NCBI GenBank assembly: GCA_963848135.1
Contig: CAWKCK010000005.1
Location: forward strand, 1 to 64,000
DNA from: an uncultured delta proteobacterium
Lineage (GTDB): Bacteria > Desulfobacterota > Desulfobacteria > Desulfobacterales > SG8-13
Direction: 5' to 3'
DNA length: 64,000 nucleotides
Within the stretch, counting starts at the first letter, position 1. Every line of letters starts with the position of its first letter. Both the position numbers and the translations under genes were made by a program. Below the pieces are notes generated by a model that was given only the letters and a program-made list of their open reading frames with translations, was not told the DNA's origin and did no database searches. Shown piece by piece: positions 70 through 49,500 of this stretch.

Positions 70-1839
70 TTATTCTTCTTCACCCAACCGCATAATAGTG
101 TCAATTTCATCGACGATCGAGCGGTTGAGCAACTCCAACCCGCTAAAATCGGCATTACTGATAAGTTGTTTGAATGCACTGTTGAGTAAATTGCGGCTGC
201 TGGCAAATCGCACGATGACTTGAAAGAGGACAAAAGAGAGCAGCCAAACCATAACAATACTGACGCCCGCATGCAGAAAGTACCCTGATGGCAGCGTTTT
301 CTGAAGCAGAAAACTCGTTACGCTTTTGTACGTAAAGAGCGCCATGACCGCCAGTGAGGGCAAGTTGAACAAAAACTGAAGTAAAAAGCCCGAAACCGCT
401 GTCACCCTTCGTTCCATAACCGACGCCAATGTCGATTTCCAGACGGACGACAACCGTTCCAACAGTTCTTTTTCCTCCGGCATTGCGGCGACGATACTAC
501 GCACCCGGTTGTCGAACCCCAAGCGGGTCAGCTTTGCGGCGATATCGGGCCAAGCCTGCTGGATTGTGTAGCGGTATTTGAGCATTGCCGGTGCCATATC
601 ACCGCCGGTCGTGGCCTCTTCGACCGCACTGCGGGTTTTACGGTACCGCACGAGAGATGAAAGCAGCCCCCAGATCTGCAAGAGTGGGTTTCCAAAACGC
701 AGGGTGGCCACCATGCCAGCTCCAGCCATAAGAAACCGGGCCCACAGGGCCACAAGCCACCCGATCGGTCCCCACCAGCGGCCAGCGAGATTCTGGTAAA
801 AAAGGGCCTGAATACCGGTCAGCATTTCAGTTCCGGTTTCTTTGAGAGTTGTCGTCGCCGCCAGCGTTGCCCGGTGCTCCAGTTCGACAATATTCTGCCT
901 GGCCGCCACCAATCCTTCTCCCATGCCGGCAACACTCTGGTGGGCGGATCTGCGGACCAGGTTGACAAGGTGCTCTGCCCGTTGCATGCGCGCATCGACA
1001 AAGCGACCACCGCGTGAAAGGTTGCCCAGGATCAGCTCGCGCAGTTGCGGATACTGATCGTATGCGTGCAGGGGACTTTCCCCTTCCGGCCACTGCGGGT
1101 CTTTGAGGTGGCTACGGGCGCTGGTACAGAAGATGCTGTCAACGGGTCTGCGCCAAGAGGCTTCAAGATGTTCCTTTAGATCCGGCAGGATTGTGTCCGT
1201 CAACTCATCTTGCGGCAGACGGTCGCAGCGGTTAAGCACCACGTAGAGCGAAGTGCCGGGAAACAGATCGACGAATGGTTTCAGGAAAACGATCGTGTCC
1301 CGGCGCTTCGGATTTTCGGCATTCAGCACACATACCAATACGTCGGTCAACGCAATCGTTTTCTCGAGTATGGGATGAAACACTTCACTTTCAGTGCTAT
1401 CCATATCAGGCGTGTCGATCAGGATGACCTGGTCCAGGCCTTCGGCGGCCGGATGCGGGAACACCTTTACGGTATCCGGCCCGAGATCATTGAGCAATAA
1501 ATCGGCATCTCCCCGTGTCTGGCAGAAAACGACCACCTCTCGCGTTGTCGGGCGATCATCGCCGGCCCTGGAAAGCCGGTCGTTACCCGATAGAGCGTTC
1601 AGCAGGGTCGATTTTCCCGCGCCGCTGGGTCCAATCAAAGTGACCACAAGTTTACGGTCCAGCCTTTCGGTCAACTTATCTAATAGGTCGGTGGCGGCAC
1701 GACACTCCGACTGCAGTGCATGCGCCGGGCGCCATCGTGACGCTGCACCCGCTTGCTCCTGAATCCTTAGAATGGCCTCCCGGAAGATCGACATCTGCCT
1801 GCGGGCCTTTAGCTGGTTCTCGTCGAAAGAATTATTCAC
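70..1839 (-). CDS. Dynamin-like/Era-type GTPase domain protein with C-terminal hydrophobic helices
   Basis: G1 GPSGAGKS, G2 RPTT, G3 DTPD, G4 NRCD; hydrophobic segments in the C-terminal half. Confidence 0.8.
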   Translation of the reverse strand: MNNSFDENQLKARRQMSIFREAILRIQEQAGAASRWRPAHALQSECRAATDLLDKLTERLDRKLVVTLIGPSGAGKSTLLNALSGNDRLSRAGDDRPTTREVVVFCQTRGDADLLLNDLGPDTVKVFPHPAAEGLDQVILIDTPDMDSTESEVFHPILEKTIALTDVLVCVLNAENPKRRDTIVFLKPFVDLFPGTSLYVVLNRCDRLPQDELTDTILPDLKEHLEASWRRPVDSIFCTSARSHLKDPQWPEGESPLHAYDQYPQLRELILGNLSRGGRFVDARMQRAEHLVNLVRRSAHQSVAGMGEGLVAARQNIVELEHRATLAATTTLKETGTEMLTGIQALFYQNLAGRWWGPIGWLVALWARFLMAGAGMVATLRFGNPLLQIWGLLSSLVRYRKTRSAVEEATTGGDMAPAMLKYRYTIQQAWPDIAAKLTRLGFDNRVRSIVAAMPEEKELLERLSSVWKSTLASVMERRVTAVSGFLLQFLFNLPSLAVMALFTYKSVTSFLLQKTLPSGYFLHAGVSIVMVWLLSFVLFQVIVRFASSRNLLNSAFKQLISNADFSGLELLNRSIVDEIDTIMRLGEEE

Positions 1840-16537: not shown

Positions 16538-17074
16538 TCTTCGCTCTCCTGTATGTTAGGTACCCCGGCCGGAAAGACTCTGCCGCTGTGCCCGCAGCAG
16601 TCGCCGGGATGATGATTATCTGACCCTGATGTATATGCGATTGCGATCAGAAAAAGAAATGGTATTCATAACGGCTCAGCTTACCCTTGTCAACCCAATT
16701 CGGGTCCGAAATATAGCTTTTTTATAGAGCCAATTCCGAGTTTTAATATTAAATTACAGTTAGTTATGAATTATCAAACAATGTCGGGCGGTTATGGGAT
16801 ATATCCAATAACCTGGTCGGTACGTATTGCATTTTTGTTTATGATCCGTTATAGGATAAAATTTAGCAAGGTTTTGTGCGTTCTTGAAGCGGCTCAATCG
16901 ATCTAACATGGACATTTCATGAAATCTATTCTTCTTTTCTCTAAATATCATAAGTTGCTAACTGTATCCTGATTATAATGCTTCATTTTCAGTTCAAGTA
17001 TCTAAAATTTAATAAATTTACTCATAGTATAGAAAAGATTTCATGAAATATTCGGGCTAAGGAGAGGGGGGCGT

Positions 17075-21012: not shown

Positions 21013-21966
21013 ATGAATTTGGTTGACGCAACGCCAAAACAGAAACTAATCGTCATTTGCGGACCGACCGGCATCGGTAAAACCGCCGCCGCCATTGCCG
21101 TGGCCGAGACCTTCGCCGGCGAAATCATCAACGCCGACTCGATGCAGGTCTATCGATCGATGACCATCGGCACCGCCAAACCGACTGCAGAGGAACGGGC
21201 CCGAATCCCCCACTACATGGTCGACATCATCCGCCCGGAGGAAAATTTCGACGCCGTCCGGTTCTCTATTGAGGCCCGCAAGATTGCCCGCGAACTCGAC
21301 CGCCGGGGGGTGCTTGCAATCGTCTCCGGCGGAACCGGTCTCTACATCAAGGCGATGCTCTACGGTCTGTTTCGGTCAGAACCGCCGGATCCATCCATCC
21401 GCCAGCAACTCCGAGCTGAAGCGGCGGCCGTCGGTTCTGAAGTCATGCACCGACGGCTCAGTGTAGTCGATGCCGAAGCCGCCGCACGCATTCACGTCAA
21501 CGATACTTTCCGCATTATCCGGGCTTTGGAGACGGTCGTTGCCACGGGTCAACCAATCAGCGAATACCATCGCCGCCACGGCTTCAGAGACTCTCCGTTC
21601 GTAACCCTGAAAATCGGTCTCGACATGGAGCGCCAACGACTTTACGAACGCATTAACCGCCGGGTCGAGACCATGATCGCCGCCGGTTTGGTGTTGGAAG
21701 TCCGGACGCTTCTCGGAGAAGGCGTCGGTGAAGGAACAAAAGCGATGCGGTCACTGGGCTACCGGCACATGGCCGCTTTCTTGCAAGGCCGCCTGACCTG
21801 GGATGAAGCCGTGCGTACCATGAAACGCGACACCCGCCGGTTTGCCAAACGTCAGCTCTCCTGGTTCAGGACCGACAGGGAAATCGTCTGGTGTTCGCCG
21901 GATGATATTGAGGCCTCATACCCTATGATCGAAAAATTCCTGGGCCACGACAGCTCATATCCTTAA
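21013..21966 (+). CDS. miaA: tRNA dimethylallyltransferase
   Basis: GPTGIGKT, DSMQVY, IGTAKP, GGTGLY, TRRFAKRQ. Confidence 0.95.
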   Translation: MNLVDATPKQKLIVICGPTGIGKTAAAIAVAETFAGEIINADSMQVYRSMTIGTAKPTAEERARIPHYMVDIIRPEENFDAVRFSIEARKIARELDRRGVLAIVSGGTGLYIKAMLYGLFRSEPPDPSIRQQLRAEAAAVGSEVMHRRLSVVDAEAAARIHVNDTFRIIRALETVVATGQPISEYHRRHGFRDSPFVTLKIGLDMERQRLYERINRRVETMIAAGLVLEVRTLLGEGVGEGTKAMRSLGYRHMAAFLQGRLTWDEAVRTMKRDTRRFAKRQLSWFRTDREIVWCSPDDIEASYPMIEKFLGHDSSYP

Positions 21967-22999: not shown

Positions 23000-23706
23000 A
23001 TCAATAATGCGCCGATGCCGCCCGGTTCTCCTTCGAAACCCGCGTCGTTCTGGCGGTTCCGGGCCTTACATCAAAGTGATGCTCTACGGCCTGTTCCGGA
23101 CCGCCCCTCCAGATCCGGCGATCCGGCAGAAACTCAAGGCCGAAGCGGATGCCATCGGTTCGGCGGCCTTGCATCGGCGTCTGCAGGGTATCGACCCCGA
23201 AGCGGCCGCACGCATCCATAGCCAGGATACCTTCCGCATTGTTCGGGCGTATGAAACAATCGCCGCCACCGGAAAACCGATCACCGATCACCACCGTCGG
23301 CACGGATTTCGGGTCACCCTTCAGGGCTCTCAAAATCGGCCTCGAGATGGACCGTAAACGGCTCTGTGAACGGATCAACAGCCGGGTGGGTGCCATGATC
23401 GCTGCCGGCTTGGTGGAAGAAGTCAGGGAACTTCTCGGAAAAGGCATTGACGGGGGGACGAAGGCGATGCGGGCATTGGGCTATCGGCACATGGTCGATT
23501 TTCTGTCTGGTCGTCTCCCATGGGAAGAGGCTGTGCGCATCATGAAACGCGACACGCGCCGCTTTGCTAAACGTCAGCTGTCCTGGTTCCGGGCGGACAA
23601 GGAAATCGTGTGGTGCACGCCGGAGAACATCAACACCTTGTATCCAATGATTGAAAACTTTCTGGCTTTCGACGGACCCCAACGCCAAAACACTGCCAGA
23701 CGCTGA
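23000..23706 (+). pseudogene. miaA: 5'-truncated, frameshifted second copy of miaA
   Basis: GGSGPYIK.MLYGLF..HHRRHGF in one frame and ALKIGL..TRRFAKRQLSWFR in another; shift near 23312; no Walker A region. Confidence 0.85.
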
Positions 23707-23729: not shown

Positions 23730-23848
23730 TTTCACGCCCCTGAGGGATTCATTGGCAAGGCACTCAAGGGTGCCGCCGTAGTATACCTACTGCTAGCCCT
23801 TGATAACGGTGCCAATGTATGCCTCAAGGAACGCCCAAGGGGTGAAAA
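23730..23848. repeat. REP-like nested palindrome with GTAG/CTAC apex
   Basis: TGAGG/CCTCA, CATTGGCA/TGCCAATG, TCAAGGG/CCCTTGA, GTAG-N5-CTAC. Confidence 0.6.
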
Positions 23849-23857
23849 CTTTTCTAA

Positions 23858-23983
23858 TTTTCTCTAAATATCATAAGTTGCTAACTGTACCATGACTATT
23901 ATGCTCCCAATTCAGTTCAAGTATCTAAAATTTAATAATTTACTCATAGTGTAGAAAAGATTTCATGAAATATTCGGGCTAAG
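23858..23983 (+). repeat. Orphan copy of the tmcD upstream region (16935-17061)
   Basis: Near-identical blocks TTTTCTCTAAATATCATAAGTTGCTAACTGTA and AGAAAAGATTTCATGAAATATTCGGGCTAAG. Confidence 0.9.
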
Positions 23984-24226
23984 CAGTCTGCCTTCAATAC
24001 TATAAGCTGACCTCAAAATTAGGATTTTCGAACGAGATCAAGGCGAGACCGAGGATGAACCCGCACAGGCATACTCACGTATGTCGAGGACTTGAGACCA
24101 GGGTTCAACGCCGATACTTGTCCGCCTCTGGCAGATCGGGTGAAAGAAATTTTTTAGACAGCTTCTAATTGTCGCCGCAAGTCCTGGCCCCAGAATTTCA
24201 TAAATTCTTTTGCGATGATTATTATT

Positions 24227-27458: not shown

Positions 27459-27798
27459 TGGAAATCGCCTTTCGCTACGCAGGTGTAGATGACAACCTGG
27501 CTAATTTTTGAATGGCAAAAATGTTTTGATTCAAACCCCGGTGATCGATGGCACCAAATGAACTCCAGTTTGCTAATAAAATCTGTCACGGCCTCTTTGG
27601 GTTGTATATGAGCCCACTTATAGGCTGAGCCTCTGACTTTAGCTTGGTAAAATACTGGAAAATTGACCGATAATCAAGGCTCCTAAACGGTATTGAAATA
27701 ATCGTTAAGGATGAGGTCAGGCGCCCCAAATCTGTTAGGCGATAGCCAAGCCGGGCGTCACGGTAGGTATGGTTTTGATAGCAACCATGGTCGGACAG

Positions 27799-27880
27799 CT
27801 ATCAGCCGTTGGATTTCCTATATATAGCCAGACGGTATCGTTATAATACACTAAATTTAAATAGTTACGAGACTGGCAAG
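27799..27880 (+). repeat. Array site R1
   Basis: CTATC..TATAG-CCAGACG-GTATC..ATAGTTACGAGAC-TGGCAAG. Confidence 0.85.
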
Positions 27881-28205
27881 CTATTTTTACCAATGTGCCA
27901 CACCGTGGTATTGACGAATGTGTTGCTATTAGGTTATGCGTTTCTTGGGGTTATCTCAATCGGTACCGACTTCAGCGTTACCTAACGCCTGATGCTCTCG
28001 TAACCACACCGGTATAATTTACATTTTCCTCATCCATTTCTCACGGTCATTATTCAATCCCCTTTATACCTTAATTAAAAACCTTGGTACCTCTAAGTCG
28101 GCTATATTCATGTAGCTGCTCGTCATTCTCATTATTAAAAGGGGGTGATGCCTCAATATACACAAAACTCTTAAATAAATAGAAATCATTGAAAAAAGAA
28201 AAGCC

Positions 28206-29871: not shown

Positions 29872-29972
29872 CTGCTATGTTCCAGCATCTATCAACCGAC
29901 GGATTTCCTAAATATATCAAGGGCGTAACACAACTAATCGCCTCTTAAAAGAGTTTATCATAGGTTGGCAAG
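29872..29972 (+). repeat. Array site R2 (degenerate core)
   Basis: CTGCTAT..CTATC..GGATTTCCTAAATATA..TGGCAAG at conserved spacing. Confidence 0.65.
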
Positions 29973-30082
29973 GCTGCAAAACCTTCCGGTTAAAATCGTC
30001 CGGCATCGGATGGCCCGAAAATTATCTCAGATTGTGATCGCATTTTCGCCCCTGATTAGGACAACCTTGTGGATATCCTTTA

Positions 30083-30142
30083 GATTGCCGAACCGTATCG
30101 CAACAATTGACACGATTTCCGATAGTTGGTTTAGTGGCTAAG
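30083..30142 (+). repeat. Array site R3
   Basis: GATTG-CCGAACC-GTATC..GATAGTT..TGGCTAAG. Confidence 0.75.
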
Positions 30143-31168: not shown

Positions 31169-31268
31169 CTGCTATATTTCTTGCGTTTTTATCTGGTCGA
31201 TTTGCTTTAGATAGTCACACCGTATCGTCACAAATGATGCGTTTTCAGATAGTTGGACTAATGGCAAG
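31169..31268 (+). repeat. Array site R4
   Basis: CTGCTAT..TTATC..GATAG-TCACACC-GTATC..GATAGTT..TGGCAAG. Confidence 0.85.
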
Positions 31269-31644
31269 GTACCTTCAATCAAGTCCACCGACTTTATCCA
31301 CCGATAAAATACAACCAAAAATATTACAATGTGATATAGCTATCTGAGGTAATATTATTTTTATTGACATTGTTGCTCCCAAAAAATAACTAATACGGAT
31401 ACATCTTCATTCGCGACTGATGCTCATTTTCTAACAGGCTTCTATTATGAAATATCTCTAATCAAGCTGACCCCATCTGGTATTAGTTCTCTTAATATTC
31501 TAAATCCTGATTACAATTTTCGGCAAACACGATAAAAGGCAAATTTTCGTCTGGGGGAAGATGGAAAAAACAGATTGTTTTAAATATACAATCTACTTGC
31601 ATTTAACGGTTGACTGATTCTTAAAAGAGGAAAAAAGGGGGGGT

Positions 31645-32526: not shown

Positions 32527-32713
32527 TACATTAACCAATTCAAGGAAGCGTCAGGCAGCGTCAAAACAGGCGTTGCCTTTTTATAAACAATAGTATCATG
32601 TTTATGGTTATTATAATCTGTAAAATTTAGTATCTAAAATTACCAATAATAATTTATTCCTCCAAAATGCAGATTATTCCGACGAAACTGTAATCAGCCC
32701 AGAGTAAATGTAT

Positions 32714-32814
32714 CTGCTATAACTTTTGAACTATCACCAAGGATGATTTTCTCGAGACAGCCGGATCATATCTTTCTAAAATCCCCGGGAACCGAAAATC
32801 CAGTTACTGGCAAG
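32714..32814 (+). repeat. Array site R5
   Basis: CTGCTAT..CTATC..GACAG-CCGGATC-ATATC..CTGGCAAG. Confidence 0.8.
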
Positions 32815-32851
32815 CTATTTGGAGTCAAACCTTTTTATTGGGGATTAATCG

Positions 32852-33495
32852 ATGAAATCATCTAAAATATCCTTGCTATATTTGGTAGCCATTCTATGGC
32901 TATTGTCACTGCATGCTTGCGCAGGTGGATCAAATAATAAAAATACCCAACCGGAAAAAATTTACCCGATAGAGGAAAGGAGTATTATACAAGATGTTGA
33001 AACAATCCAATTAGCAACCATCGATTCTATCCCGATGAGGGCCCCAATAAAAAATAATTACGATAATATTATTTTCAGAAGTTTCGAGTGTAGCGAACAG
33101 TTTAAGAAAGATTATCCAGATGCGCGAAAGAATTGTAAGGAATCTATAATTTCAAAATTGAAAAATAAGAAAAATTATCTATCTGTAACTGATAATATAG
33201 AAAAGCCAATTCCAGGAAAAAGTTTATTTATAGACATGAAGATTATTGACATGCGAATAGTGACTGAATCAGCACGGGCTCTGGGAATTTATATGGCTGG
33301 AGCTTCTTATATGGATGTTTTGCTTAAATATGGGATGCTGATACCAACCAAATTATGCATAAAAAGCATCTATACACATATAGTAACCCATTTGGTTCAT
33401 ATTGGTCAGGCGGAGCATCTGACCGGAATCTACCATCTGATTTCGGAGTACTCATCGGAGAATATATTTTTAGACTTGTACCCGGAACACAATAA
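32852..33495 (+). pseudogene. Lipoprotein (DUF4410-like) with a 1-nt frameshift near 33326
   Basis: Lipobox LHAC; alternative frame gives IWDADTNQ..GGASDRNLPSDFG..PGTQ-TAA(33495), ending just before site R6. Confidence 0.6.
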
Positions 33496-33509
33496 ATCAA
33501 ATGCTCTAT

Positions 33510-33610
33510 CTGCTATAGTTCCAAAGATATCATCCAGCTTGATACCATTAATATAGCCATACCATATCGTCAGTTTCTATTTAATTTCTTTAGGTTATGG
33601 TATTGGCAAG
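33510..33610 (+). repeat. Array site R6
   Basis: CTGCTAT..ATATC..TATAG-CCATACC-ATATC..TTGGCAAG. Confidence 0.8.
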
Positions 33611-33719
33611 GAATATTTAGTTGCCTGTCACGTTGATGCATTGACAACTTGTTTCTTGCCAAATAGTAGTAATCAAATTGAGTTTTCAAAACCCTAAAAG
33701 ACATAGAAAGGAGTGAAAA

Positions 33720-34238
33720 ATGAAAAAATTAACTAATGTGGTGCTTATAGTTATTTTTGTTTTAATCATTGCTCCTGGACTCTCCGCAGCTAAAGAAGAG
33801 ACGGTCATAATCAGGGAGGGTTTTACTGTTCCAGATGGTAAGAGGCTTCTGATTGATGATATAACTGTTATGTGCAACCTTCTTATACCAACGTTTTTTA
33901 ACTGGCCAAATCCGGCTGTTCAAATGTTATCTGGATCTTCTACTCCAATTTTGAGAATAACATACCCCAACGATAAGTGTCCTGAAAATATTACCGGGGA
34001 GGATGAGCCACATTGTCCATTCCAAGATCATTCTCTTGGTGTTGGTTCAAATTATTCCGCAATAGCACAACATCCAGATGGAAGAAATGCAATTAGCATT
34101 TATGCAGGCCGCCAAACGTCAATTATTGCCGACGAAGGAGCAATTCTTTATGGATTGTGTCCAGTAAATCGTGCCGATGTATTAGTGGGAGCTGAATTGA
34201 TCTCCGTGGGGATCGGTCGTCTAATAAAAATGCCATAG
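33720..34238 (+). CDS. Secreted hypothetical protein
   Basis: AAGGAG RBS, signal peptide, 172 aa. Confidence 0.7.
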   Translation: MKKLTNVVLIVIFVLIIAPGLSAAKEETVIIREGFTVPDGKRLLIDDITVMCNLLIPTFFNWPNPAVQMLSGSSTPILRITYPNDKCPENITGEDEPHCPFQDHSLGVGSNYSAIAQHPDGRNAISIYAGRQTSIIADEGAILYGLCPVNRADVLVGAELISVGIGRLIKMP

Positions 34239-34429
34239 TTTCTGTTATGGCCGATAAAAAGCTTAGTCAGAAATAGCTCTACATTTTCATTTCTGCAATT
34301 AAGCGAAATTTTAGTAACTCGGAAACCAAGAAGGCCGACTTCAACATATGGTAGTTGGACTTTTTCGCTTTTGATTGTGATAAGATCAATGTATCGTGGA
34401 AAAAACAGTCATGGCGAAATTCAAGCCTG

Positions 34430-34486
34430 CTGCTATGAACTTTGAGCTATCTCTGGTCGATCTGCTTGAGATAGCCAACCGGTATC
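34430..34486 (+). repeat. Array site R7 (left arm and core only)
   Basis: CTGCTAT..CTATC..GATAG-CCAACCG-GTATC; right arm replaced by the integrase terminator. Confidence 0.8.
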
Positions 34487-34497
34487 TAACGAATAGA

Positions 34498-34528
34498 GGG
34501 GTGAAGCCAACCAAGGGATTCACCCCTT
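34498..34528 (-). terminator. Hairpin immediately downstream of the integrase
   Basis: GGGGTGAA..TTCACCCC. Confidence 0.5.
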
Positions 34529-34532
34529 TCGT

Positions 34533-35370
34533 TTAGCAATATAGGTTTTCAATCCACCTCATCGCCTCTGTATCACTGATTGTTCCAAGATACCGCTGAG
34601 TGGTTGCAAGATTTGCGTGACGGAGAATGACCTTGCTCACGATTTCGATTGGCGCTCCGGATCGAGAGGCATAAGTAGCCGAATGCCGCCTCAGGTCATG
34701 GGGTCTCAAATGGATACCGACCATCTTTCCCGCTTTTTTTACAACCAGCCTGGCCGCTGTATAGGTAATCGGAAAAATGCGATCATCTGGCCTGTTATAA
34801 GTCTTAATGGCATAGTCACGAAGCCTGGCAGCCACTTTCTGCGGGATGAACACAATCTCATGCTCTTTACCGCTTTTCGGTTCTCGCAGGATCAGCTTTC
34901 GATCCTGGATGTCATTCACTCTGAGTTTTAACACTTCACCGATTCGCATCCCGCCACGGGCCATCAGTTCAAGCATCAAACGATTACGAATTTTGGTGGT
35001 TCGGAAAATGATTTCATCAACGGTCTCTTTTTCGATGATTTTCCATCTTGATACCACCCTTTCCCGATAAAGCTTTCGGATCATGGGTGTGTCACACGGA
35101 TTGCCTATGTCGGGGTCGACGTTATTGCGGAAAAAATTGAAAAAGGCGGACAGGTGGGAATAACGGACTCGCTTTGTGTAGGGCTTGTTACCGTTGGTAA
35201 AGCTGTTAAGAAAGGAAAGGACATCATCTGGTGTAACCTGGGCAATCTCGACCTCACCGAACTCATGACAGAAACGGTCAATAACTGACCAGTAGGACCG
35301 CACAGTATTTTTTTTTCGAGTGGGTCTTGTGGTAATCGATCCAGATTTTTGCGGCTTTTGTGACTTTCAT
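34533..35370 (-). CDS. Tyrosine recombinase (about 278 aa) with a frameshift in an A9 run
   Basis: Catalytic R (GMRIGE), K (PKSG), HDLRR, LRH, Y (TQRY); ATG 35370 after GGGGG gives MKVTKAAKIWIDYHKTHSKK, which joins NTVRSYW only if A9 (T 35308-35316) is read as A8. Confidence 0.88.
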
Positions 35371-35429
35371 GGTTTACCCCCTTTGGTTATTGATGTTTGA
35401 CATTCGGGGAAATCCCGAGGTAAACTGAT

Positions 35430-35488
35430 GATAGCCAGATCGTATAAGCAGTTTCAACGGTATTTTCGATAGTTACAAGACTGGCAAG
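35430..35488 (+). repeat. Array site R8 (core and right arm)
   Basis: GATAG-CCAGATC-GTATA..GATAGTTACAAGAC-TGGCAAG. Confidence 0.85.
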
Positions 35489-35963
35489 CTAGTTTTAACG
35501 AGGTGCCACATAGTGGCAATTGACAACATTATCCATATATGAAAATCAATGATCAAGCGAAAGCTCATTCTGAATCTCCGCTGGATGTTCCATACGTTAT
35601 CAAACTTTTCACCTGACTATTCGTCTCCTCTTCATCAACTCCTGGCAATTAAATTCTATACCTAAATAACCAATAGTAACCGGCAACCTAAAACCATCAA
35701 GAGGAGGTTTCGTGATAGGGTTTGTCGATAACCCAATATGCCAAATTGCCTAAGGGGATGGTTTCGTTTTTTTTATTCTTTGCGGAAACAGGTTCTTCTT
35801 GTTGGCCAAGAACCTGATGGCCAATGCAGACGCATTTAACAGTACAACGGCTACAGGATTAAGGAAATAATGACTTAAGCGTTCGAGTAAGGCAATGAAA
35901 GTAAATTGCTGTGCGCAGGTCATACCGCTGTGAGGTCCAATTCTTCTTTTAGGGGGATCATCC

Positions 35964-36968
35964 ATGAAACGGAACAACATTTTTACCTTAATTTTTGTGA
36001 GCCTCTGTTTTCTACTTTTTGCTACAGCATCATATTCAAAACTGGCGTCAAACGAAGACCTGTGGGAAGGATCGACAATAATAGATCAAAGTGGCGATTT
36101 TAATGCGTGGCCTGTCGAGAACATATTCGGTCCTAGCGCCACCCTATTTAGGGATTATCAGGATGCCGGATTTCAACACTATGTTGTTTGGAAGACGCTG
36201 ATACCAGTATCACTTGATTCTATCAATTTGATCGCATGGCACGATTGGGGAGTGGATCCTCATGGAGATAATCGTGATAGGAATTACCGGGGATTTTCAG
36301 AGTTCAGACTCTACTATGCCAATTCATACGAAAAGAGTTACACTGATTGGAAGCAAATAATTACGACGACAACAAACAACCCCTACGGTGGAGGCACGAA
36401 CTACAGTGGTAAGAATTGGCTCGAATATGAGGCAACTTTTTCACCCATCACAGGACAATATTTTAAAGCCGTGTTTGTTCAGGCCGGTGATGGATCGGAT
36501 CATTACAATGATTCACAAGGACCAAGAGTTATTGAGTTGGATGGTTACTATAATTACCCCAAATTAGCAATATTGTGGAATTTATGGCATGAGACTGACT
36601 CTCCAAATCATTTGACCGAGGTCGTGGATTTTGGCTATGTCGGATGGGATAAATCGGGAGAATCAAAGGCTGACGCTTTGGTAGTCCTGGGTAATATAGG
36701 TTCAAAAGATCTTGAAATTGGCGAAATAGATTTGAGTTGTAACGAAGGGTCATCATACTTTGAAACTACCGTAGATTGTAAAAACAAATTAATTTCTCCC
36801 GGTAAAACGTGCTTTTTTTTAGCTACATATCGACCGGAAAAAGGTGGATTGCATTCATGCATATTGTATATTGAGTCTAATGACCCACAATACCCTAAGA
36901 AGCAAATACAATTTAGAGGACGTTCAATTCCTCCAGGTCAGTGGTTTCTCGAACTTCTTTTAGATTAG
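35964..36968 (+). CDS. Secreted protein, galactose-binding-like domain plus Ig-like (ASH/choice-of-anchor D type) domain
   Basis: Signal peptide; DFG..N.G..DL.I..I.PG.TC..Y.P..IESNDP pattern; ends QWFLELLLD. Confidence 0.65.
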   Translation: MKRNNIFTLIFVSLCFLLFATASYSKLASNEDLWEGSTIIDQSGDFNAWPVENIFGPSATLFRDYQDAGFQHYVVWKTLIPVSLDSINLIAWHDWGVDPHGDNRDRNYRGFSEFRLYYANSYEKSYTDWKQIITTTTNNPYGGGTNYSGKNWLEYEATFSPITGQYFKAVFVQAGDGSDHYNDSQGPRVIELDGYYNYPKLAILWNLWHETDSPNHLTEVVDFGYVGWDKSGESKADALVVLGNIGSKDLEIGEIDLSCNEGSSYFETTVDCKNKLISPGKTCFFLATYRPEKGGLHSCILYIESNDPQYPKKQIQFRGRSIPPGQWFLELLLD

Positions 36969-37154
36969 AGAGACGATAATTAACAGAGGTCTCTTAGTAT
37001 GTTAAAATGTAAATTCAATCTTACATGACAAAACATGAGGTCGAGTGAATACTGACAAACTACAAATACCGTCTGTACTAATAACGTCAGCGGAAAACTC
37101 AAGTGAGCTTCCCACGTTATCCAATGAATCGAAAATAAGCCTAATTGACGATAG

Positions 37155-37254
37155 CTGCTATGACCATTGAGTTATCATCTGGTCGATTTGATTGAGATAG
37201 CCGGATCGTATCGTCACAGATTGTTTAATTTCTGATATTTATGCCTTTGGCAAG
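37155..37254 (+). repeat. Array site R9
   Basis: CTGCTAT..TTATC..GATAG-CCGGATC-GTATC..GATAT..TGGCAAG. Confidence 0.85.
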
Positions 37255-37530
37255 CAAGTCAGATTTTGGATAAGGCTTAAATTGTTGTGCTTTCATTTTT
37301 ACGTATTTGCACTATTGCGGTTATTCAGATACTGGTACGGAAAAACATTTTACGCTGTAAAGTTTTAAACATACAAAAGGATTCGCAGATTGTGAAAAGT
37401 ATTACATAATGTTACACAATATGCCCTCAATTTTTTACATCTACCTTGTGGCATATGCTCAACTTGCTGAATTTATTTTCAATTAATCTGCTTATATTAC
37501 TTTATTATTGCACGTTTTTTGCATCTTTAA

Positions 37531-37645
37531 TCGCGTGGAAAGCAAATCTTACCGAAAGGTAAGGACAGAAAGCCACGGGTCTTGAATCCAACTGCTGATT
37601 CCGGTTTCTCAACACCTCCTATTGTCAAGATAGCCGTGTTGCCGC
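37531..37645 (+). ncRNA. c-di-GMP-I (GEMM) riboswitch-like motif with extended P3
   Basis: GCAAAT-CTTACC-GAAA-GGTAAG-GACAGAAAGCCACGGGTCTT..AAGATAGCCGTGTTGCC. Confidence 0.65.
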
Positions 37646-37871
37646 TTGTGACTTCGTTAGAGTCAGATGAAGATGACCCGGCTATTTTTGTTTGATACTC
37701 TCCCGGTAGCTGAATGCCTGTACACCTTTTTGACCTGTTCTCGAAATACTGAATTAACAACCTTTCTGGTTTAGGTATCAAGCCAACATCCAGTCTCGTT
37801 AGTTCTTCGCCCGTCGCGAAACTGAGTTAGCCTTTTTTATGTTTTATAGCCGAGAAGCTAGGAGGTAAACC

Positions 37872-39345
37872 ATGCGATTCAGTGCAAAATTTTTTTGGAC
37901 AGTGATGGCCGTGTCATTGATTATGGTTATTTCCACTGGACATGAAATACTCGCCGGTACATGCCAGGTTCAAAAAATAGCGGCTGCCGGGAACTATGAC
38001 CCCCAATATTTGACCAATGTCAACGATATACTGTTTTTCAGCGCTGATGACAGTGTGCACAATAGAGAGTTGTGGAAAAGCGACGGCACCGAGGTCGGCA
38101 CCGTCATGGTCAAGGACATTTATTCCGTGAATACGAAGGCAATCCTCTGTCGGTAGCTATCCTACCAAGCTGACCAACGTGAACGGCACACTTTTTTTCA
38201 GTGCCGGACAGATTAGCGGGGGACCACATAACCCGATACGTGAGTTATGGAAAAGCGACGGCACCGAAGCCGGCACGGTCATGGTCAAAGACCTAAATGG
38301 CATGGATCCGGGAGCTCCGGATTGGCTGATCAATGTCAACGGGACGCTATTCTTCACGGCCAGCGATATCGGAGAGGAAGGATCTGAACTGTGGAAAAGC
38401 GATGGCACCGAGGCCGGCACGGTCATGGTCAAGGATATCAACGAGACAGTGCGCCCTGGATTCCCTGACGATAGCAGCAACCCAATGCACCTGACGGCAG
38501 TGGGCAATCTGCTTTTTTTCACTGCCGATGACGGGGAACATGGGCGGGAATTATGGAAAAGCGACGGCACCGAAGACGGCACCGTCATGGTTGAAGATAT
38601 CTGGGCATTGACGATAAGCAGTGATCCCGTCGGGTTGACCCACCACCAGCTGATTGTGGCATTCAGCGCCGATGATGGCCTATCAGGCCGCGAGCTTTGG
38701 GGCAGTGCTCTTGGGTTTGGGGCCTATCAAATCAAGGACATAAGAACGGTTTTTGGTAATCCCCAGCTCAGCAGCAACCCTGAATTTCTCACTTCCATCG
38801 GTAGCACCCTCTTTTTTGCCGCCACTGCCGCGGATGGGACCGCCAGAGAACTGTGGAAAAGTGACGGTACAGAGGCGGGTACGGTCCTGGTAAAAGACAT
38901 CAACCCGCTTGCGGATAGTTCGCCGCAAGACCTTATAAATGTGAATGGTACGCTTTATTTTTCCGCCGATGACGGAGTAAATGGCCGTGAACTATGGAAA
39001 AGCAATGGCACAGCGGCAGGCACTGTCATGGTCAAAAACATCAATCCGCTGGGAGATAGCTTGCCGGAAGGCTTTACATATGTGAACAACAAGCTCTACT
39101 TTTCTGCCGATGACGGAATTAACGGCCGCGAACTATGGACAAGTGACGGCTCGACGTCGGGCACCATAATGGTAGAGGATATCCAGCCGCTCGCAGGGGC
39201 TGGCAGCGATCCGGAATGGTTAACAAACGTGAACGGCACGCTCTATTTTAGCGCTTCGGGCGGGCTTTGGAAATGCTATGAAAAGGAGGAGGATTTTCCC
39301 TGGGAACTCTTTCTCCCTGCAATCACTAAGAAACGCGGAAAGTGA
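37872..39345 (+). pseudogene. Secreted ELWxxDGT-repeat beta-propeller protein, frameshifted near 38125-38155
   Basis: Signal peptide and first ELWKSDGT repeat in 37872-38156; remaining repeats in 38179-39345; may be an assembly indel. Confidence 0.8.
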
Positions 39346-39458
39346 CGGAGAAACCGAGGCTGCTTTATTACCGGACTAGTCATAGACCAACTCTTCATTT
39401 TAGCTGTCATATGTAATTTTGGCGATCCAAGTCACCGATTCAGGGGGGCCTTCAGAGG

Positions 39459-40220
39459 ATGAACAGCAGGGAGATCTTACTTTCATTACCGAAGGTGTTG
39501 GACATGAAGGATAAAGGGATAACAGCTATAGGCTTGGCGATTCCCATTCTGGCATTTATTTTAATGCTTGCTTTTCCACAGGTTGTCATAGGCGCTGCTC
39601 CAAATGAGAACCTCACACCAATATATATGTTGCTGCTTGAAAGTGGCTGTCAATCAGTTGCCATCTCTCTAGTAAAGGACATCAATGGTTACGGAAGTTC
39701 TGTCCCAGAATATTTAACCAACATCAATAGTTTTCTGTATTATAGTGCAATGGACGGTGTTTACGGTGATTATCTGTGGAAATCGGACGGCTCCTCTTCC
39801 GGCACTAAGATGGTCAAAGACATCAATAGTGTTGAAGGTTCTAAACCGGAGAACTTAACCAACATTAACGGCACTCTGTTTTTCAGCGCATTTGATGGAG
39901 TCAACGGACGGGAGCTATGGAAATCGAACGGCACTCATGCAGGCACTCAGATGGTGAAAAACATAAATACCGGTGGTAATTCTTTCCTTTATTCACTCAC
40001 AAACGTTAATGGCTCCCTATTTTTCAGTGCTACAGAAGGCGTCCATGGAAGAGAACTATGGAAATCCGATGGCACCTCCGCGGGTACCCAATTGGTTAGG
40101 GATATCAATAGCAGCGGAGATTCTTACCCGTCTGGTTTAACGAATATCAATGGCACGCTTTATTTTAGTGCAGATGATGGGGTCAACGGAAAGGAATTAT
40201 GGAAAGCAGAATGTCGATGA
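39459..40220 (+). CDS. Secreted ELWxxDGT-repeat protein
   Basis: Four (E/Y)LWK-type repeats after a signal peptide; start may be 39504. Confidence 0.85.
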   Translation: MNSREILLSLPKVLDMKDKGITAIGLAIPILAFILMLAFPQVVIGAAPNENLTPIYMLLLESGCQSVAISLVKDINGYGSSVPEYLTNINSFLYYSAMDGVYGDYLWKSDGSSSGTKMVKDINSVEGSKPENLTNINGTLFFSAFDGVNGRELWKSNGTHAGTQMVKNINTGGNSFLYSLTNVNGSLFFSATEGVHGRELWKSDGTSAGTQLVRDINSSGDSYPSGLTNINGTLYFSADDGVNGKELWKAECR

Positions 40221-40411: not shown

Positions 40412-40511
40412 CTGCTATATAGAGCAACTATAAGTATTTCTCAAATGCTCATCATTGCCACATCATACTTTCACCGATGATATAATTTTTGACGTTTGGC
40501 ATAGTGGCAAT
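40412..40511 (+). repeat. Array site R10a (degenerate)
   Basis: CTGCTA 40412, TTGCCA 40455 (+43), TGGCAA 40505 (+50): same spacing as the other sites. Confidence 0.6.
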
Positions 40512-40531: not shown

Positions 40532-40562
40532 GGTCGATTTCGTGGGATAGCCATAACGTACC
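40532..40562 (+). repeat. Array site R10b (core)
   Basis: GGTCGATTT..GATAG-CCATAAC-GTACC. Confidence 0.6.
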
Positions 40563-42969: not shown

Positions 42970-43000
42970 AAAGAGAAAAGCAGCTCGTTGGATTACATAT

Positions 43001-43057
43001 TATAGCCAGATCGTATATACAGTATTAATGCTATTTTAGATAGTTACGAAACTGGCA
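43001..43057 (+). repeat. Array site R11, split by IS110
   Basis: TATAG-CCAGATC-GTATA..GATAGTTACGAAAC-TGGCA; the remaining AG resumes at 44608. Confidence 0.85.
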
Positions 43058-43199
43058 CCCATTAAAAGGCTTCCGTCAACAAAAAACACCACGCCATCGC
43101 AAAGGGGGTATATTTTTTTGCAGGAACAAAATTCAGTTCGACGTTCGTCCTATTTTTTTTACCTGCTCCCGAAATTTATTTTTGTTTTCTGTGCAGCGT

Positions 43200-43487
43200 C
43201 ACTTAATCTGCTAACAGGCACCCATCAGGATCAAGGCCAAAGAGAGAATATCTAAAGCCCCTGGTCCGTAATCGGACCCCAGAAAAAGATCGGTACCTTG
43301 TCAAAGCCAATTGGGTTGTCACAAGAGATAGGGCTCCTTTCGGGCCAGCCATTGCGAGCTTATGACAAGGGCAGATCGAAAAAGCGGACACCCGCCTGAA
43401 TCTATATTGTAGGGAGTGCAGCGGTGGCCAACCAAGCAATAGGGATTTTAACCACCAATAGCAAAGGATCACCGCTGCAGTCCCAAA
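43200..43487 (-). ncRNA. Putative bridge/seek RNA of the IS110 element
   Basis: Non-coding, hairpin-rich; contains segments matching the target (CCUUG / CUGG) and the donor junction (AUGGGUG / GAUUA); boundaries approximate. Confidence 0.55.
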
Positions 43488-44508
43488 CTATTGCGCAAGA
43501 AGCTTTTCACGAAAGGGAACCTGATCTCTCATGATATAGTAGCAGATGGCGGGCCAGTTTGTTGCCCAGCGCTTTGGTTGCCAGACTTGTATTGGCCTGA
43601 GCAACCTTGCGGTTATAGTATCGTCTAAACTGTTCATTATACCGACGGCCCAATTGAGCGGCTTCAGTGAGGGCCCAGCTCAGGTAGCGATTGCCGTTTT
43701 TACGATTGCCACACCCCTTGCTTTTTCCGTCGGACAACCGCTTGGATGGCACGCACCGACAGTAGGAAGCAAAATTGCCGACCTTTGGAAAACGATTGAT
43801 GTCACCCACTTCCAGCATGATAGTCATAGCCAGAATGTTACCGATACCGGGTATTGTCAGCAATTGCCTGAACCCTTTTTTGAGTTTTACTCTTTCTATT
43901 ATTGCTTTCTCTATACTTTTGATCTTCTGCTTGAGAAAATTTATTGTATCCAAACTGGTTTGAGCAGAGAAAATCAGGTACTCTTCTTTTAGCCACCTTT
44001 CCAATGCTTCGACGTTCATCTTTCGGATGTCACTGGTGCTTATTTTTACTGCACAGCATCTTTGAATGAACGATTGCAGGCTCAAGATGTTCGCGGTCTT
44101 GTGCCGGACTAAAAACATCCGTTTGCGTGCCAGGTCCCGCACCGGGCGATGTTGCTTTGGGTAAATGTAGCCTTCGGGCAAAATACCGAGTATGAGAAGT
44201 TGGGCCAGAAAAAAGGCGTCATGCTGATCGTCACTGTACTTTAGCCCTTCGTATTGTTTGATTGCCGACGGGTTGGCCAAGTGTGCAGAGCCATATCCCG
44301 CATCCATGAGGCCATCTACGAGCCAGTACCAGTTGTAGGTGGACTCTACAACAAATCCCTTTAATCGTTTTTTGAAGGGTTCTAACGTGTGAAGAATCTG
44401 GTCAAGGTCATTGGCCAAACGCTTTTTGAAAACACGGTTCAATGCATCGTCTATGATTCCGATGTAGGTATTTCTTTAATGAAGATCCAGACCAGCGTAC
44501 AGTTCCAT
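43488..44508 (-). pseudogene. IS110-family transposase/recombinase with a premature stop and a C-terminal frameshift
   Basis: MELYAGLDLH-TAA (codon 11), VVEST, SDD.HDA, TIPGIG, SDGK; extra base near 43548 before ICYYIMRD. Confidence 0.85.
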
Positions 44509-44882
44509 AGGGCACCTCCTACGTTATAGGGTTATGGTTGGGATCAACCCTTTATAACGAATCGCTGTGTCCTTTGCGAACGGGAGGTGCCTTTTAGATG
44601 ATTATCAAGATATTATTACCAATGTGATACGCTGTGGTATTGACGTTTGAATTACTATTGGGTTATGCGCTTCTTTGGGGACATTTTAATCGATACCGTC
44701 TTAAACCATACCAAATGCCTGTTGCTCTCGTCATCGCTATTACCCAATTCTTTCGAACCCATCCATTTCTTACGGTCATTGATCGTTCCCATTTCTATCT
44801 CAATAACACCATTAAATCCTTGAATTTCGTTTTTGGCTCGTTGCTATTCACATATCTGGGCAATATCTATCAAGGGGGGAAG

Positions 44883-46679: not shown

Positions 46680-47065
46680 TGAGGAGTGTATTGCTTTGAA
46701 TAGATTCACATTTTGATCGTGAATTGCAGTAGATCGTGTTTATCTCTGAATGTTCAATTCACAAATCCGGATTGATCCCACAAATTTCCTGTGTAGTTGC
46801 CTCCGTTAACATCGGGCCGTGGGCACCTGGACTGAGCGAAGGTGGTTCGCCTATACCTATAATATCTCAGTTTTTAAACATCCAGAATAATTTATGGTAC
46901 GTTATCTGTCATAATTTGTCATCTAAAAAGTACAGATAATGTACACTCGTTAATGGGAACACTCGCGCAGTATATCAACCATACATCGTTAACGGAAGCT
47001 TGGTCTGATATATTTTGATATCTACATTTTTTCAAATGGTTAAGAAAATTTCTATGATCCCACAT

Positions 47066-47148
47066 CTATCACCCTGCGGATTTCCTGAATATATCCAGAC
47101 GGTATCGTTATAATAGACGAAAATTTAGATAGTTATGAGAATGGCAAG
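47066..47148 (+). repeat. Array site R12 (closest to R1)
   Basis: CTATC..GGATTTCC..TATAT-CCAGACG-GTATCGTTATAATA..GATAGTTATGAGAA-TGGCAAG. Confidence 0.85.
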
Positions 47149-47201
47149 CTGTACGACATAAAACCTATTATTTCTATTAATAATGGTTAGTTATAGAACA
47201 T

Positions 47202-48122
47202 TCAATGTATTGGTTTTTGCCCTTTGTCAAGAGTTTTTTCACCGTCACCGGTGTGGCGTTGAAGCACCTTGTTCATGGCGCTATAGTAATCACGTCGAAC
47301 CTTCGGGTTGGAGACCCGACAATACCGCTGCGTGGTTTTTATGCGCGTGTGGCCCAGCAGATCCTGGATGGTAACCAGGTCGGCATCGGCGTTGAGCATC
47401 TGCGTGGCCATCGTATGACGTAGTTGATGGCAACAGACTCTCAGGCCTGCTTTCTTGGCATAATACTGCATACGGTGCTGAATGCCGCGAACCTTCAGAG
47501 GTTGGCCTCTAAAACGGCCTTTTTCCACCAGGAAGAGTTTTCTTACTCTCGAATGCGGTCTGGTCTTGAGATAAGCCACAAGTGCGAGATAGGCGTCCTT
47601 GCTCAAATAGACCACACGGTCTTTTAGCCCCTTGCCCTGGTAGACAAACACTTGATACCGCGGCAGGTCCAAGGCACTCAGAGTGAGATTGGTTACCTCT
47701 TCGACCCGGAGTCCGCAGCGCAGCATCAGCTTGAAGATGGCCCGGTCTCTGGGATTGTCGATGACCGCAAAGAGCGCAGAGATCTCTTCATCCCGCAGGT
47801 AGCGCGGCAGTGGCCTGGAGAGCCTTAAGGTATACCCGCGCTTGACCGGATTGCTCATTACAACCTCCTCTTCGTTGATCAGGTAATCATAAAAGCTGCG
47901 GATGCTGTCCAGGTAGCAATTGACGGTCTTGGGTTTCAAACGCTTGCTGCGCAGATAATCGATGAAGCCCAATAGTTTCTTGTGGGTGACAGCCTCCACG
48001 TGCATATCCAGCCAGACGACAAACTGCTTCAGGGTGCTCATATAGGTTCGCAGCGTATGGGCGGAGTAATTGCGTCGCTTTAAGAACCTACGGTAGTTGA
48101 TAATCGAGTTGGTAATGTCCAT
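47202..48122 (-). CDS. Tyrosine recombinase with N-terminal SAM-like domain
   Basis: GLRVEE, GKG, HQLRH, LGH, TQRY. Confidence 0.92.
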   Translation of the reverse strand: MDITNSIINYRRFLKRRNYSAHTLRTYMSTLKQFVVWLDMHVEAVTHKKLLGFIDYLRSKRLKPKTVNCYLDSIRSFYDYLINEEEVVMSNPVKRGYTLRLSRPLPRYLRDEEISALFAVIDNPRDRAIFKLMLRCGLRVEEVTNLTLSALDLPRYQVFVYQGKGLKDRVVYLSKDAYLALVAYLKTRPHSRVRKLFLVEKGRFRGQPLKVRGIQHRMQYYAKKAGLRVCCHQLRHTMATQMLNADADLVTIQDLLGHTRIKTTQRYCRVSNPKVRRDYYSAMNKVLQRHTGDGEKTLDKGQKPIH

Positions 48123-49176
48123 GGAGTTCTCCCTTTTCGACGATGGCCATGGCTTTGTAGTATTGTTCCCGGCGCGTGTTGTCGGTCAGCCGGGCATAGC
48201 GGCGGGTCATTTCGATGCAGCTGTGCCCGAGAAGCTCCTGCAAACACTGCAGCGGCATACCGGCGTTGAGCAGCTCTGTGGCGAAGGTGTGCCGCAGGCA
48301 GTGCAGGGTATATCCCTTGTGGGCCAGTCCGGATTTTTGCAGATAGGCGTTGAAGATTAGGCGGGCAGCCGCATAACCCAGGGCTCGCCCGCAGTTGCCG
48401 TAGAAGATGAACCCGCTTTGTCTTCTCCTGGTGTTCAGCCATTTTATTAGAGCGCTTCGGGCATCATCGCTCAAATAGACAACGCGTCCGACCCGGTTCT
48501 TTTGTGCTTCTATGATTTGTATAATATTTTCCCGCAGGTTGAGATCTTCCACTTTGGTGCCGAGCAGCTCGCCGATGCGCATCCCGGTTCGCAACAATGT
48601 CAATACCAGGGCGCGATCACGCGGTTTTTTGACTACGGCCAACAGCTGCTTGATATGATCCGGATCAATGGCCCGCGGCAGGGCATCGGGAACTTTAATG
48701 CGCAGTTTGCGCTTGAGCAGATCCGGGTGAAGCACATCGCGATCGATCAAAAAGTTGATAAAGGCATACAGGCAGCGCAACTGAGTGCTGACCGTATTGG
48801 GTGAAAGCCCGCGGTCTTGCTCATGTTCAACGAATTCGGCGATGTGCTCGCGGTTGATGGCTTGCAGTTGATCGATGCCGCTGTCTTTGAGAAAACGTAA
48901 AAAACCGGTAATGTTGCCACCGTTGGATCGGATCGTGTTGTGTCGGCAATTGCGTCGATGCTGATCGCGCAAATATGCCTCGACATGCTCCGCAGCCAAG
49001 AGATCCTGCACGGTGATTTTGCGTAGGATTCGGTCAATAAGAGGATTGAAAGTGAAGGGATTTCGATCGAAATTGGAACGGATCGAGGGTGAACGCGTTG
49101 ATTGGTCCTTGCCCGTCCGATACCTTTTGCGTTGATCGGTCTGGGTTTCTGCGGAAACGTGTTCGAGGTTCATCAC
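48088..49176 (-). CDS. Tyrosine recombinase with N-terminal SAM-like domain
   Basis: GMRIGE, QKN, HCLRH, LGH, TRRY; overlaps the next gene by 35 nt. Confidence 0.92.
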   Translation of the reverse strand: MMNLEHVSAETQTDQRKRYRTGKDQSTRSPSIRSNFDRNPFTFNPLIDRILRKITVQDLLAAEHVEAYLRDQHRRNCRHNTIRSNGGNITGFLRFLKDSGIDQLQAINREHIAEFVEHEQDRGLSPNTVSTQLRCLYAFINFLIDRDVLHPDLLKRKLRIKVPDALPRAIDPDHIKQLLAVVKKPRDRALVLTLLRTGMRIGELLGTKVEDLNLRENIIQIIEAQKNRVGRVVYLSDDARSALIKWLNTRRRQSGFIFYGNCGRALGYAAARLIFNAYLQKSGLAHKGYTLHCLRHTFATELLNAGMPLQCLQELLGHSCIEMTRRYARLTDNTRREQYYKAMAIVEKGELHGHYQLDYQLP

Positions 49177-49420
49177 TGCCTCCTTTCGTTTTTTGCAGAA
49201 ATAACAGGCAGATAATGACCTCTGTAACGCTTTCAGTCAATTACCTTTTTATGTCGTACAGTGGCAAGATAACCATACCTTTCTTGTAGCCGTCCTCTAA
49301 CCCTCAAACAAACATCCTGACCTTATTAACTTAACTTTTGTAGAATTTAAACTCCATGTTAAATTAGACAGGTGATACTGATTTTGATATAGTATAATAA
49401 AAATTGAAATGCAGTTTCAA

Positions 49421-49500
49421 TCCAGAACAAAGCTAAACCTGTCGTGAGGCAGAGACAGAAAACCACGGACCTGTTAGCAGGCAGCCGGGTTACCACGGAA
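49421..49500 (+). ncRNA. c-di-GMP-I (GEMM) riboswitch
   Basis: G-CTAAA-CCTGTC-GTGA-GGCAGA-GACAGAAAACCACGGACCTG..CAGGCAGCCGGGTTACC. Confidence 0.8.

Follow-up and report, generated by a model that had tools for sequence, protein, structure and literature searches.

A 100-bp repeat of a Desulfobacterales genome as a candidate double-stranded recombination site for gene cassettes, with most cassette junctions at its outer ends

The 100-bp repeat copy at positions 37155–37254 of the window (the whole 64,000-nucleotide stretch of DNA analysed here) may be a double-stranded, sequence-defined recombination site of a non-integron cassette system with three working parts, a reading to which we assign a probability of roughly one half. 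Under this reading, the central GATAG-N7-GTATC would be a core-type site where the gene module of the recombinase IntS integrates and excises, the half-site copies held at fixed distances in the two arms would most likely serve as accessory binding sites through which the synapse is assembled and orientation is fixed, and the outer heptamers would be the commonest joining points of neighbouring DNA, with the near-invariant right-end TGGCAAG as the most important one. An invariant 7-bp word would let any two sites exchange strands, whereas the variable N7 would not. Comparisons of joined sequences point to the terminal heptamer more than to the core spacer as the place where cassettes meet. The earlier note on this DNA had described dyad arms around a GATAG-N7-GTATC core with a variable spacer and had read that core as the point of strand exchange; the observation is partly confirmed here, and the reading of the core is partly supported.

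The copy under study, R9, matches the full nhmmer model of the repeat (model positions 1–100, plus strand, E = 1.3e-21) and consists of a left end, left arm, core, right arm and right end. Its left end reads CTGCTATG and contains the left-end heptamer TGCTATG (37156–37162), followed by the left-arm half-site motif TTATC (37172–37176; consensus CTATC), which is a putative accessory binding site, the central core GATAG-CCGGATC-GTATC (37196–37212), the right-arm half-site motif GATAT (37234–37238; consensus GATAG), and finally the right-end heptamer TGGCAAG (37248–37254), the main cassette junction; all of these lie on the plus strand. At the centre of the site, an inverted GATA and TATC are separated by 9 nt (G-N7-G). 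The half-site copies keep a conserved spacing, with CTATC at model positions 17–21 and GATAG at 79–83. In this numbering position 43 is the first of TAGCC and position 93 the first of TGGCAAG, which agrees with the spacings of 42–44 nt (CTGCTA to TAGCC) and about 50 nt (TAGCC to TGGCAAG) given by the earlier note.

We profiled information content and dyad symmetry over 107 full copies from four genomes. The left heptamer averages 1.62 bits per position, the left arm 0.85, GATAG 1.10, N7 1.00, GTATC 1.37, the right arm 0.66 and the right heptamer 1.80; TGGCAAG is therefore the most conserved block of the site and is exact in 75 of the 107 copies. The column-wise dyad score of this profile is not above chance (z = 0.8 against column shuffles), and the inverted match of the arms is limited to short motifs, namely CTATC versus GATAG and TGCTA versus TGGCA. 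The description of the arms as approximate inverted repeats of each other thus stands for these short motifs and does not extend to the arms column by column. RNAalifold predicted no base pairs over 26 copies, the DNA folds of four copies were unremarkable on both strands (z from −1.08 to +1.60), and no Rfam family matched any site copy between 27000 and 50000 at E ≤ 0.1. An attC-like hairpin model was considered as well and is ruled out by the RNAalifold result and the DNA folds.

Starting from four window copies, an nhmmer profile iterated twice against the 6.03-Mb genome (G000) recovered 82 repeat copies, 40 of which are full-length, with E-values down to 1e-21. Nine arrays contain at least three sites each, and every one of their 67 sites (67/67) lies in the orientation of its array. 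Between sites lie short genes that are unrelated to one another and for the most part match no Pfam family, and a site is found at nearly every gene boundary. With a sequence-only model, the repeat was present in 17 of 41 related genomes, G000 included, and in 13 of 15 genomes of the same genus, with 65 copies in G006, 46 in G007 and 35 in G003. The nearest named relative of one recombinase is a Desulfobacterales MAG. A distant-mode search of a plasmid collection with positions 37100–37300 as the query gave no match, and we found no description of the site or the system in the openly accessible article texts covered.

The window array comprises 12 sites, all (12/12) on the plus strand, and a repeat finder clusters the site copies into families D8, D10 and D12–D14. 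Upstream of R9 lie copy R1 (27783–27883), a degenerate copy with a retained left arm and a decayed core (29873–29972), a partial copy covering model positions 23–97 (30065–30140), and further copies at 31169–31270, 32713–32817 and 33509–33613, the last of which overlaps the end of an ORF at 32852–33556. These are followed by a left arm and core GATAG-CCAACCG-GTATC that run into the IntS module (34431–34497), by intS itself on the minus strand (34533–35303), whose product is a tyrosine recombinase, small and Xer-like, with 256 aa in the listed ORF, and by a core GATAG-CCAGATC-GTATA with right arm and TGGCAAG on the 5′ side of intS (35425–35489). Downstream of R9, a copy with a variant left arm occupies 40446–40510, with a second partial core (CCATAAC) at 40546–40562, and a copy at 42981–43057 is cut within its right-end heptamer, after TGGCA, by an IS110-family insertion sequence on the minus strand (43058–44600, right boundary approximate; transposase 43507–44442). 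The last site copy of the array (47049–47151; TGGCAAG at 47142–47148) abuts a tandem-recombinase unit on the minus strand (47149–49261; intA 47202–48122, intB 48088–49176), which has TGGCAAG on both sides (47142–47148 and 49262–49268). The word TGGCAAG occurs 13 times on the plus strand of the window and twice on the minus strand. The core motifs that the earlier note reported are found where it placed them and far above chance: GATAG-N7-GTATC with at most one mismatch matches the window 10 times versus 2.30 ± 1.40 in shuffles, and none of 100 shuffles reaches 10. All of the N7 words that it listed were likewise located at window cores, which start at 27823, 30083, 31210, ~32756, ~33552, 34470, 35430, 37196, 40546, 43001 and 47090.

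Several features of the DNA between and beyond the sites were recorded alongside. A c-di-GMP-I-GGC riboswitch model matches 37533–37647 (+, 40.7 bits), in the cassette directly behind R9 and upstream of repeat-rich ORFs (37872–40220), and 49423–49498 (+, 51.7 bits), upstream of a PAS-domain gene at 49739, both scores being below the gathering score of 59. Nine or more tandem 141-nt repeats at 38026–40193 encode an ELWKSDGT-type motif, and the two ORFs that contain them (38179–39345 and 39459–40220) appear to be the two parts of a single large repeat protein. Beyond the cassette array, direct repeats of 72–90% identity (16920–17064 with 23843–23986, and 21325–21891 with 23049–23613) suggest a duplicated gene block upstream.

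To find the joining points, 40 array regions from G006, G007 and G003 were added to those of G000, giving 201 site hits. All sites with 700-nt flanks were compared by megablast under strict extension, a survey that supersedes a first ungapped flank comparison of 11 pairs. From it, 25 site pairs with one homologous flank were picked by hand, excluding IS110-related, IntS-internal and physically overlapping pairs; one was uninformative because of a contig end, and arm identity in the remaining 24 was scored against background. We show that the junction falls at the right end of the site in 12 of the 24 informative pairs, with upstream homology running through the whole site to positions 95–100, or downstream homology beginning at 87–104 or later. 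In 7–8 pairs the junction lies at the left end, where homology starts or stops between −29 and +16; two of these pairs are not independent, as one upstream segment is common to both. Only 3–4 pairs place it in the core region, where the left arm goes with the upstream flank and the right arm does not, or where homology stops at +59 to +63. Examples of this last group are C17:1233836 versus G007:C3:6163 (left-arm identity 0.88, right-arm 0.51) and C17:1242384 versus G007:C21 (0.88 and 0.69). R9 itself falls in the right-end group: its downstream cassette is homologous to a G006 cassette from model position 91 onward, and the arms of the two sites are unrelated.

Public sequencing runs gave hints only. 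Parts of 33000–39000 occur in 13 runs, none of which (0/13) contains half of the sampled words, and the four runs examined consist of short, low-depth contigs. Among the 24 of 113 loose ends listed, metagenome contigs depart from the window immediately after TGGCAAG at 47148 and 31271, a further contig has another right arm joined to the tandem unit at 47142, and two contigs diverge at positions 63–66 of two sites. A joint across a cassette was not seen among these 24 of 113 loose ends from the four low-depth runs.

Site hits also vary at their left side. About a quarter (55/201) lack the usual left arm, and many of these have instead a 40-nt left arm of one of two other kinds, each with the TGCTAT end preserved, at 40446–40485 in the window, at C1:70481, C17:1233051 and C18:450365 in G000, and at loci L077, L057, L080 and others; arms thus come in exchangeable types. 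Separately, a unit of ~113 nt with inverted ends (GAGACTGTCGAAAAA ...) lies directly at the left end of three sites (G000 C17:1242273–1242389 and C18:448020–448136, and locus L086 of G007), and looks like a miniature element targeting the left heptamer.

The junction survey bears directly on the proposal of the earlier note that N7 is the overlap region across which strands are exchanged. As the sole overlap region for cassette exchange, with sites of equal N7 as preferred partners, the N7 of the central core now appears unlikely. The part that stands is the core-site form of the centre, together with the position of the IntS module between two cores and a solo site at C17:1223156. The 3–4 comparisons in which the left arm travels with the upstream cassette and the right arm does not would also fit an exchange at the core, as would the metagenome contigs diverging at 63–66 (again among the 24 of 113 loose ends listed) and the weak correlation between left-arm and right-arm identity (r = 0.17 over 5565 site pairs). 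Linkage between arms dips to 0.12 at position 46, versus 0.25–0.36 inside the arms, a dip that is confounded by, and partly due to, the signal-free invariant columns of the core. Against N7 as the sole overlap, 19–20 of the 24 junctions are at site ends, and unequal N7 words flank the IntS module, so that no spacer identity between partners is evident there.

The variability that the earlier note described for N7 holds for three of its positions. N7 follows the pattern CC-n-n-A-n-n, in which positions 46, 47, 48 and 50 are conserved (1.05–1.83 bits) and positions 49, 51 and 52 are variable (0.36–0.62 bits); the 107 copies carry 52 distinct 7-mers, yet the mean of 1.00 bit per position exceeds that of either arm. 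The earlier note had named crossovers outside the core, or an N7 no more variable than its flanks in a larger alignment, as outcomes that would speak against it, and to a large extent both are what we observe. Its suggestion that sites with the same spacer are preferred partners is not borne out either: two random full sites share an N7 7-mer with a probability of 0.030 across the four genomes and 0.045 in this genome alone, so that three shared pairs among 11 window sites compare with 1.6–2.5 expected. Window sites with equal N7 belong to the same arm subtype, and the shared words are thus attributed to common descent.

The central core nevertheless has a probable role of its own. Three tyrosine recombinase genes are present in the window (intS, intA and intB), and the products of all three score far below the curated cut-offs for XerC, XerD, XerA and the integron integrases; with TIGR02249 they reach 52.9, 111.8 and 77.0 bits versus a cut-off of 265, in matches that cover parts of the model. 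IntS can be aligned to structures of archaeal XerA and of XerD, and at the aligned positions it has the catalytic Arg, His-x-x-Arg, His and Tyr. We found IntS in 8 of the 15 same-genus genomes and in five other families, many copies having stop codons. The IntS module of ~1 kb has a left arm and core behind the 3′ end of the gene and a core, right arm and TGGCAAG before its 5′ end. This layout occurs at four near-identical loci (C5:34431/35425, C17:1225153/1226152, C17:1236814/1237813 and C18:552517/551518) and in two more diverged copies (C17:38583 and C18:881205), and it is repeated in G006 (92% identity over the entire 1062 nt) and in G029 (IntS 61% identical). The left half-site 5′ of intS is GATAC in most copies versus GATAG in ordinary sites, and the right half-site behind the 3′ end of intS continues into module sequence, which together place the switch between positions 45 and 53. 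The core-flanked module and the solo site at C17:1223156, which has matching arm types, fit integration and excision of the module via the core. Judged from this sequence arrangement, crossover probably does occur at the core, which would be a core-type site for IntS, and IntS would presumably bind the GATAG motifs. An empty orthologue of an IntS-occupied site was sought through a 104-nt upstream match in G006:C2, which showed a short conserved stretch and then no site.

The N-terminal 20-odd codons of IntS (MKV.KAAKIWIDYHK...) are in a different frame from the remainder, and linking the two parts requires a +1 shift at a run of nine A residues (window 35303–35370, minus strand; C17:1225953–1226123; C18:551547–551717; loci L045, L048 and L049). 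This change of frame is needed in all six same-genus copies read (6/6), several of which have stop codons, whereas the homologue in G036 lacks the A run and reads through without interruption. It may reflect programmed slippage that throttles the recombinase, or shared decay.

The right-end heptamer is marked by a second kind of mobile unit. Of the overlapping pair intA/intB (47202–49176), the genome contains two further near-identical copies, and a diverged family is represented by another two. The three near-identical units start directly after TGGCAAG with CTGTACGACATAAAA and end in the perfect inverse of CTGTACGACATAAAA, followed by TGGCAAG again, such that perfect 15-nt inverted ends enclose each unit and the heptamer is duplicated around it. 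The second family, at 62% and 49% protein identity, has different inverted ends and again TGGCAAG on both sides at both loci (2/2). All five tandem units of the genome (5/5) have one orientation relative to the asymmetric heptamer, and a relative of the unit in G029 has another 7-mer on both sides. We infer that strand exchange would take place inside the heptamer. SE-6945 and SE-6283 of Vibrio carry two tyrosine recombinase genes and imperfect inverted end repeats that were read as core-type sites, and are strand-biased circularizing integrative elements of at least 7 kb with four core genes, 19-bp imperfect repeats and cargo (PMC9345347). They are a loose parallel to the tandem unit, which measures 2.1 kb and has only two genes, ends of 15 nt that are perfect inverted repeats, and a duplicated word of 7 bp.

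The same end of the site attracts other sequences. An IS110-family element interrupts 5 of the 82 sites behind TGGCA, between this pentamer and the final AG (window 43058–44600, C1:217593, C18:536750, C18:590962 and C5:657236), and copies are also present in arrays of G006 and G003. Many cassettes open with a common stretch of ~45 nt, in which TTGACC appears ~13 nt after TGGCAAG and a TATAGT-like box ~17 nt further on, as judged by eye (for instance at G000 C17:1233936, C1:76324 and C1:202378). This stretch would be a putative cassette-borne promoter, unlike the mostly promoterless integron cassettes. A sigma-54 reading of TGGCAAG itself was rejected, as the −12 GC is absent by eye.

We considered whether the repeat could be a non-autonomous miniature derived from the IntS element of 1.06 kb, with which it has the bounding TGCTATG and TGGCAAG in common, that spreads alone into intergenic DNA, in which case the apparent cassettes would be no more than the genes between insertions. 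Homology among the IntS-bearing units does run from position 1 of the left arm to exactly TGGCAAG. Near-identical sites with different flanks on both sides are on record too, such as C17:1233836 versus C18:546384 (identical from −31 to +99) and the window site at 31171–31270 versus a G007 site (91% identity), and the clustering of junctions at both site ends is what such an element would leave. However, the uniform orientation of 67/67 sites within arrays and the presence of sites at nearly every gene boundary are not expected of independent insertions, the same cassette is found beside different neighbours, no target duplication was seen by eye around solo sites in the alignments, and the end motifs are only weakly inverted. 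The dyad score of z = 0.8 and the uniform orientation inside arrays likewise set the repeat apart from MITEs. We therefore regard an independently spreading miniature element as improbable.

It is also conceivable that no site-specific event takes place in the repeat, and that mosaic arms and junctions arise from homologous recombination or gene conversion among copies. In a two-parent scan of 121 sites we found six mosaics, three of which are unreliable because a parent has a 14-column gap; the three reliable ones switch at positions 21–53, 68–70 and 74–78, and define no sharp interval. Such scatter is what homologous exchange would produce, and conserved blocks could seed exchange between copies that share, on average, 57% identity in the left arm (0.57 ± 0.12) and 49% in the right arm (0.49 ± 0.11). 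At this level, however, most copies would be too dissimilar for efficient homologous exchange; moreover, junctions concentrate in the two 7-nt end blocks and not in the core, which is the longest identical stretch, and the heptamer duplication around inverted-repeat units marks site-specific insertion. Overall, homologous exchange as the whole explanation has little likelihood. A mainly regulatory role for the repeat (for example as insulator, terminator or operator), with mobile elements using it as a safe landing place, is very improbable, because the site has no hairpin or terminator fold and no Rfam family, cassette homology breaks at the repeat ends, and several genomes have a recombinase gene embedded in it, even though many cassettes have the promoter-like TTGACC ... 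TATAGT stretch 13 nt after TGGCAAG (by eye) and the repeat is entered by mobile elements of three or four unrelated kinds.

The preferred reading, a three-part double-stranded recombination site, has its own difficulties. Junctions are not at one point, as the left-end (7–8/24) and near-core (3–4/24) cases demonstrate, the reliable mosaic switches resemble scattered exchange more than one fixed cut, and the two N7 words beside the IntS module have as many as 5 mismatches in 7 positions (CCAACCG versus CCAGATC or TCAGAAA), which is not expected from simple conservative exchange. The right arms of all IntS-bearing units are of one subtype, and because these units are conserved with their arms and end exactly at the heptamer, the 1.06-kb unit may also be mobile as a whole, and not through the core. 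The tandem pair is present in none of the 15 same-genus genomes (0/15 at E ≤ 1e-40), so that no heptamer enzyme is assigned there; an enzyme acting at the heptamer in genomes without the tandem pair would be predicted. G007, with 46 sites, has no IntS match at E ≤ 1e-30, a 165-nt fragment at a contig end aside. Finally, the A9 frame change in all IntS copies of the genus that were read, and the stop codons in several, count against this reading.

Comparison with known systems helps to delimit what kind of site this could be. As in integrons, the sedentary chromosomal ones included, the units contain one gene, are uniformly oriented and have a repeated site mostly just behind the upstream gene; the commonest junction lies at the far end of the site, and a half-site with cassettes behind it has a tyrosine recombinase gene reading away from it. 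IS110-family elements target attC sites, and an element of this family targets the site described here. In contrast, attC is an imperfect palindrome (R″/L″ with L′/R′) that acts as a folded single strand, whereas the present site has no fold. The outer boxes of the attC consensus, RYYYAAC ... GTTRRRY, are absent, the ends being TGCTATG and TGGCAAG in the profiles of 40 and of 107 copies. The recombinases differ from integron integrases in falling far below the cut-offs and in being too short for the IntI-specific insert, many cassettes seem to have their own promoter (by eye), and junctions occur also at the left end and the core.

Complex tyrosine-recombinase sites, including lambda attP, the Tn4430 resolution site used with TnpI, and cer/psi of XerCD, offer another comparison. 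The repeat shares with them a length of ~100 bp, inverted half-sites around a short spacer, and extra copies of the half-site motif at fixed distances from the core on both sides. It differs in occurring dozens of times per genome, between cassettes, and in having its best-conserved blocks and most junctions at the outer ends rather than at the core. The plan of simple core sites of the lox, FRT or dif type, inverted elements around a 6–8 bp overlap, is found at the centre, and also at the right end within the tandem unit, where perfect 15-nt inverted ends surround TGGCAAG. The pdif sites that bound the dif modules of Acinetobacter plasmids (XerC/XerD) offer a parallel in that small gene modules bounded by Xer-type sites occur in various contexts. 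Those sites are simple, 28 bp long, of alternating orientation and served by host Xer proteins, whereas the sites here are 100 bp long, directly repeated and accompanied by recombinase genes of their own.

The true joining point matters in practice, as it decides how assays are designed and how cassettes are cut from genome data, and the short site, its defined parts and the natural products at hand should make the system easy to rebuild in the laboratory. More tentatively, one 100-bp site could have two strand-exchange points for different tyrosine recombinases, the core for the IntS gene and the terminal heptamer for promoter-bearing cassettes and tandem units, and might represent a double-stranded-DNA gene-capture system of sediment sulfate reducers with an origin independent of integrons. 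To our knowledge, no other machinery for stockpiling and shuffling single genes is as well understood as the integron, the only such case, whose sites must fold as single-stranded DNA. A second cassette system with a double-stranded site of fixed sequence, if true, would mean that gene-cassette banks evolved more than once.
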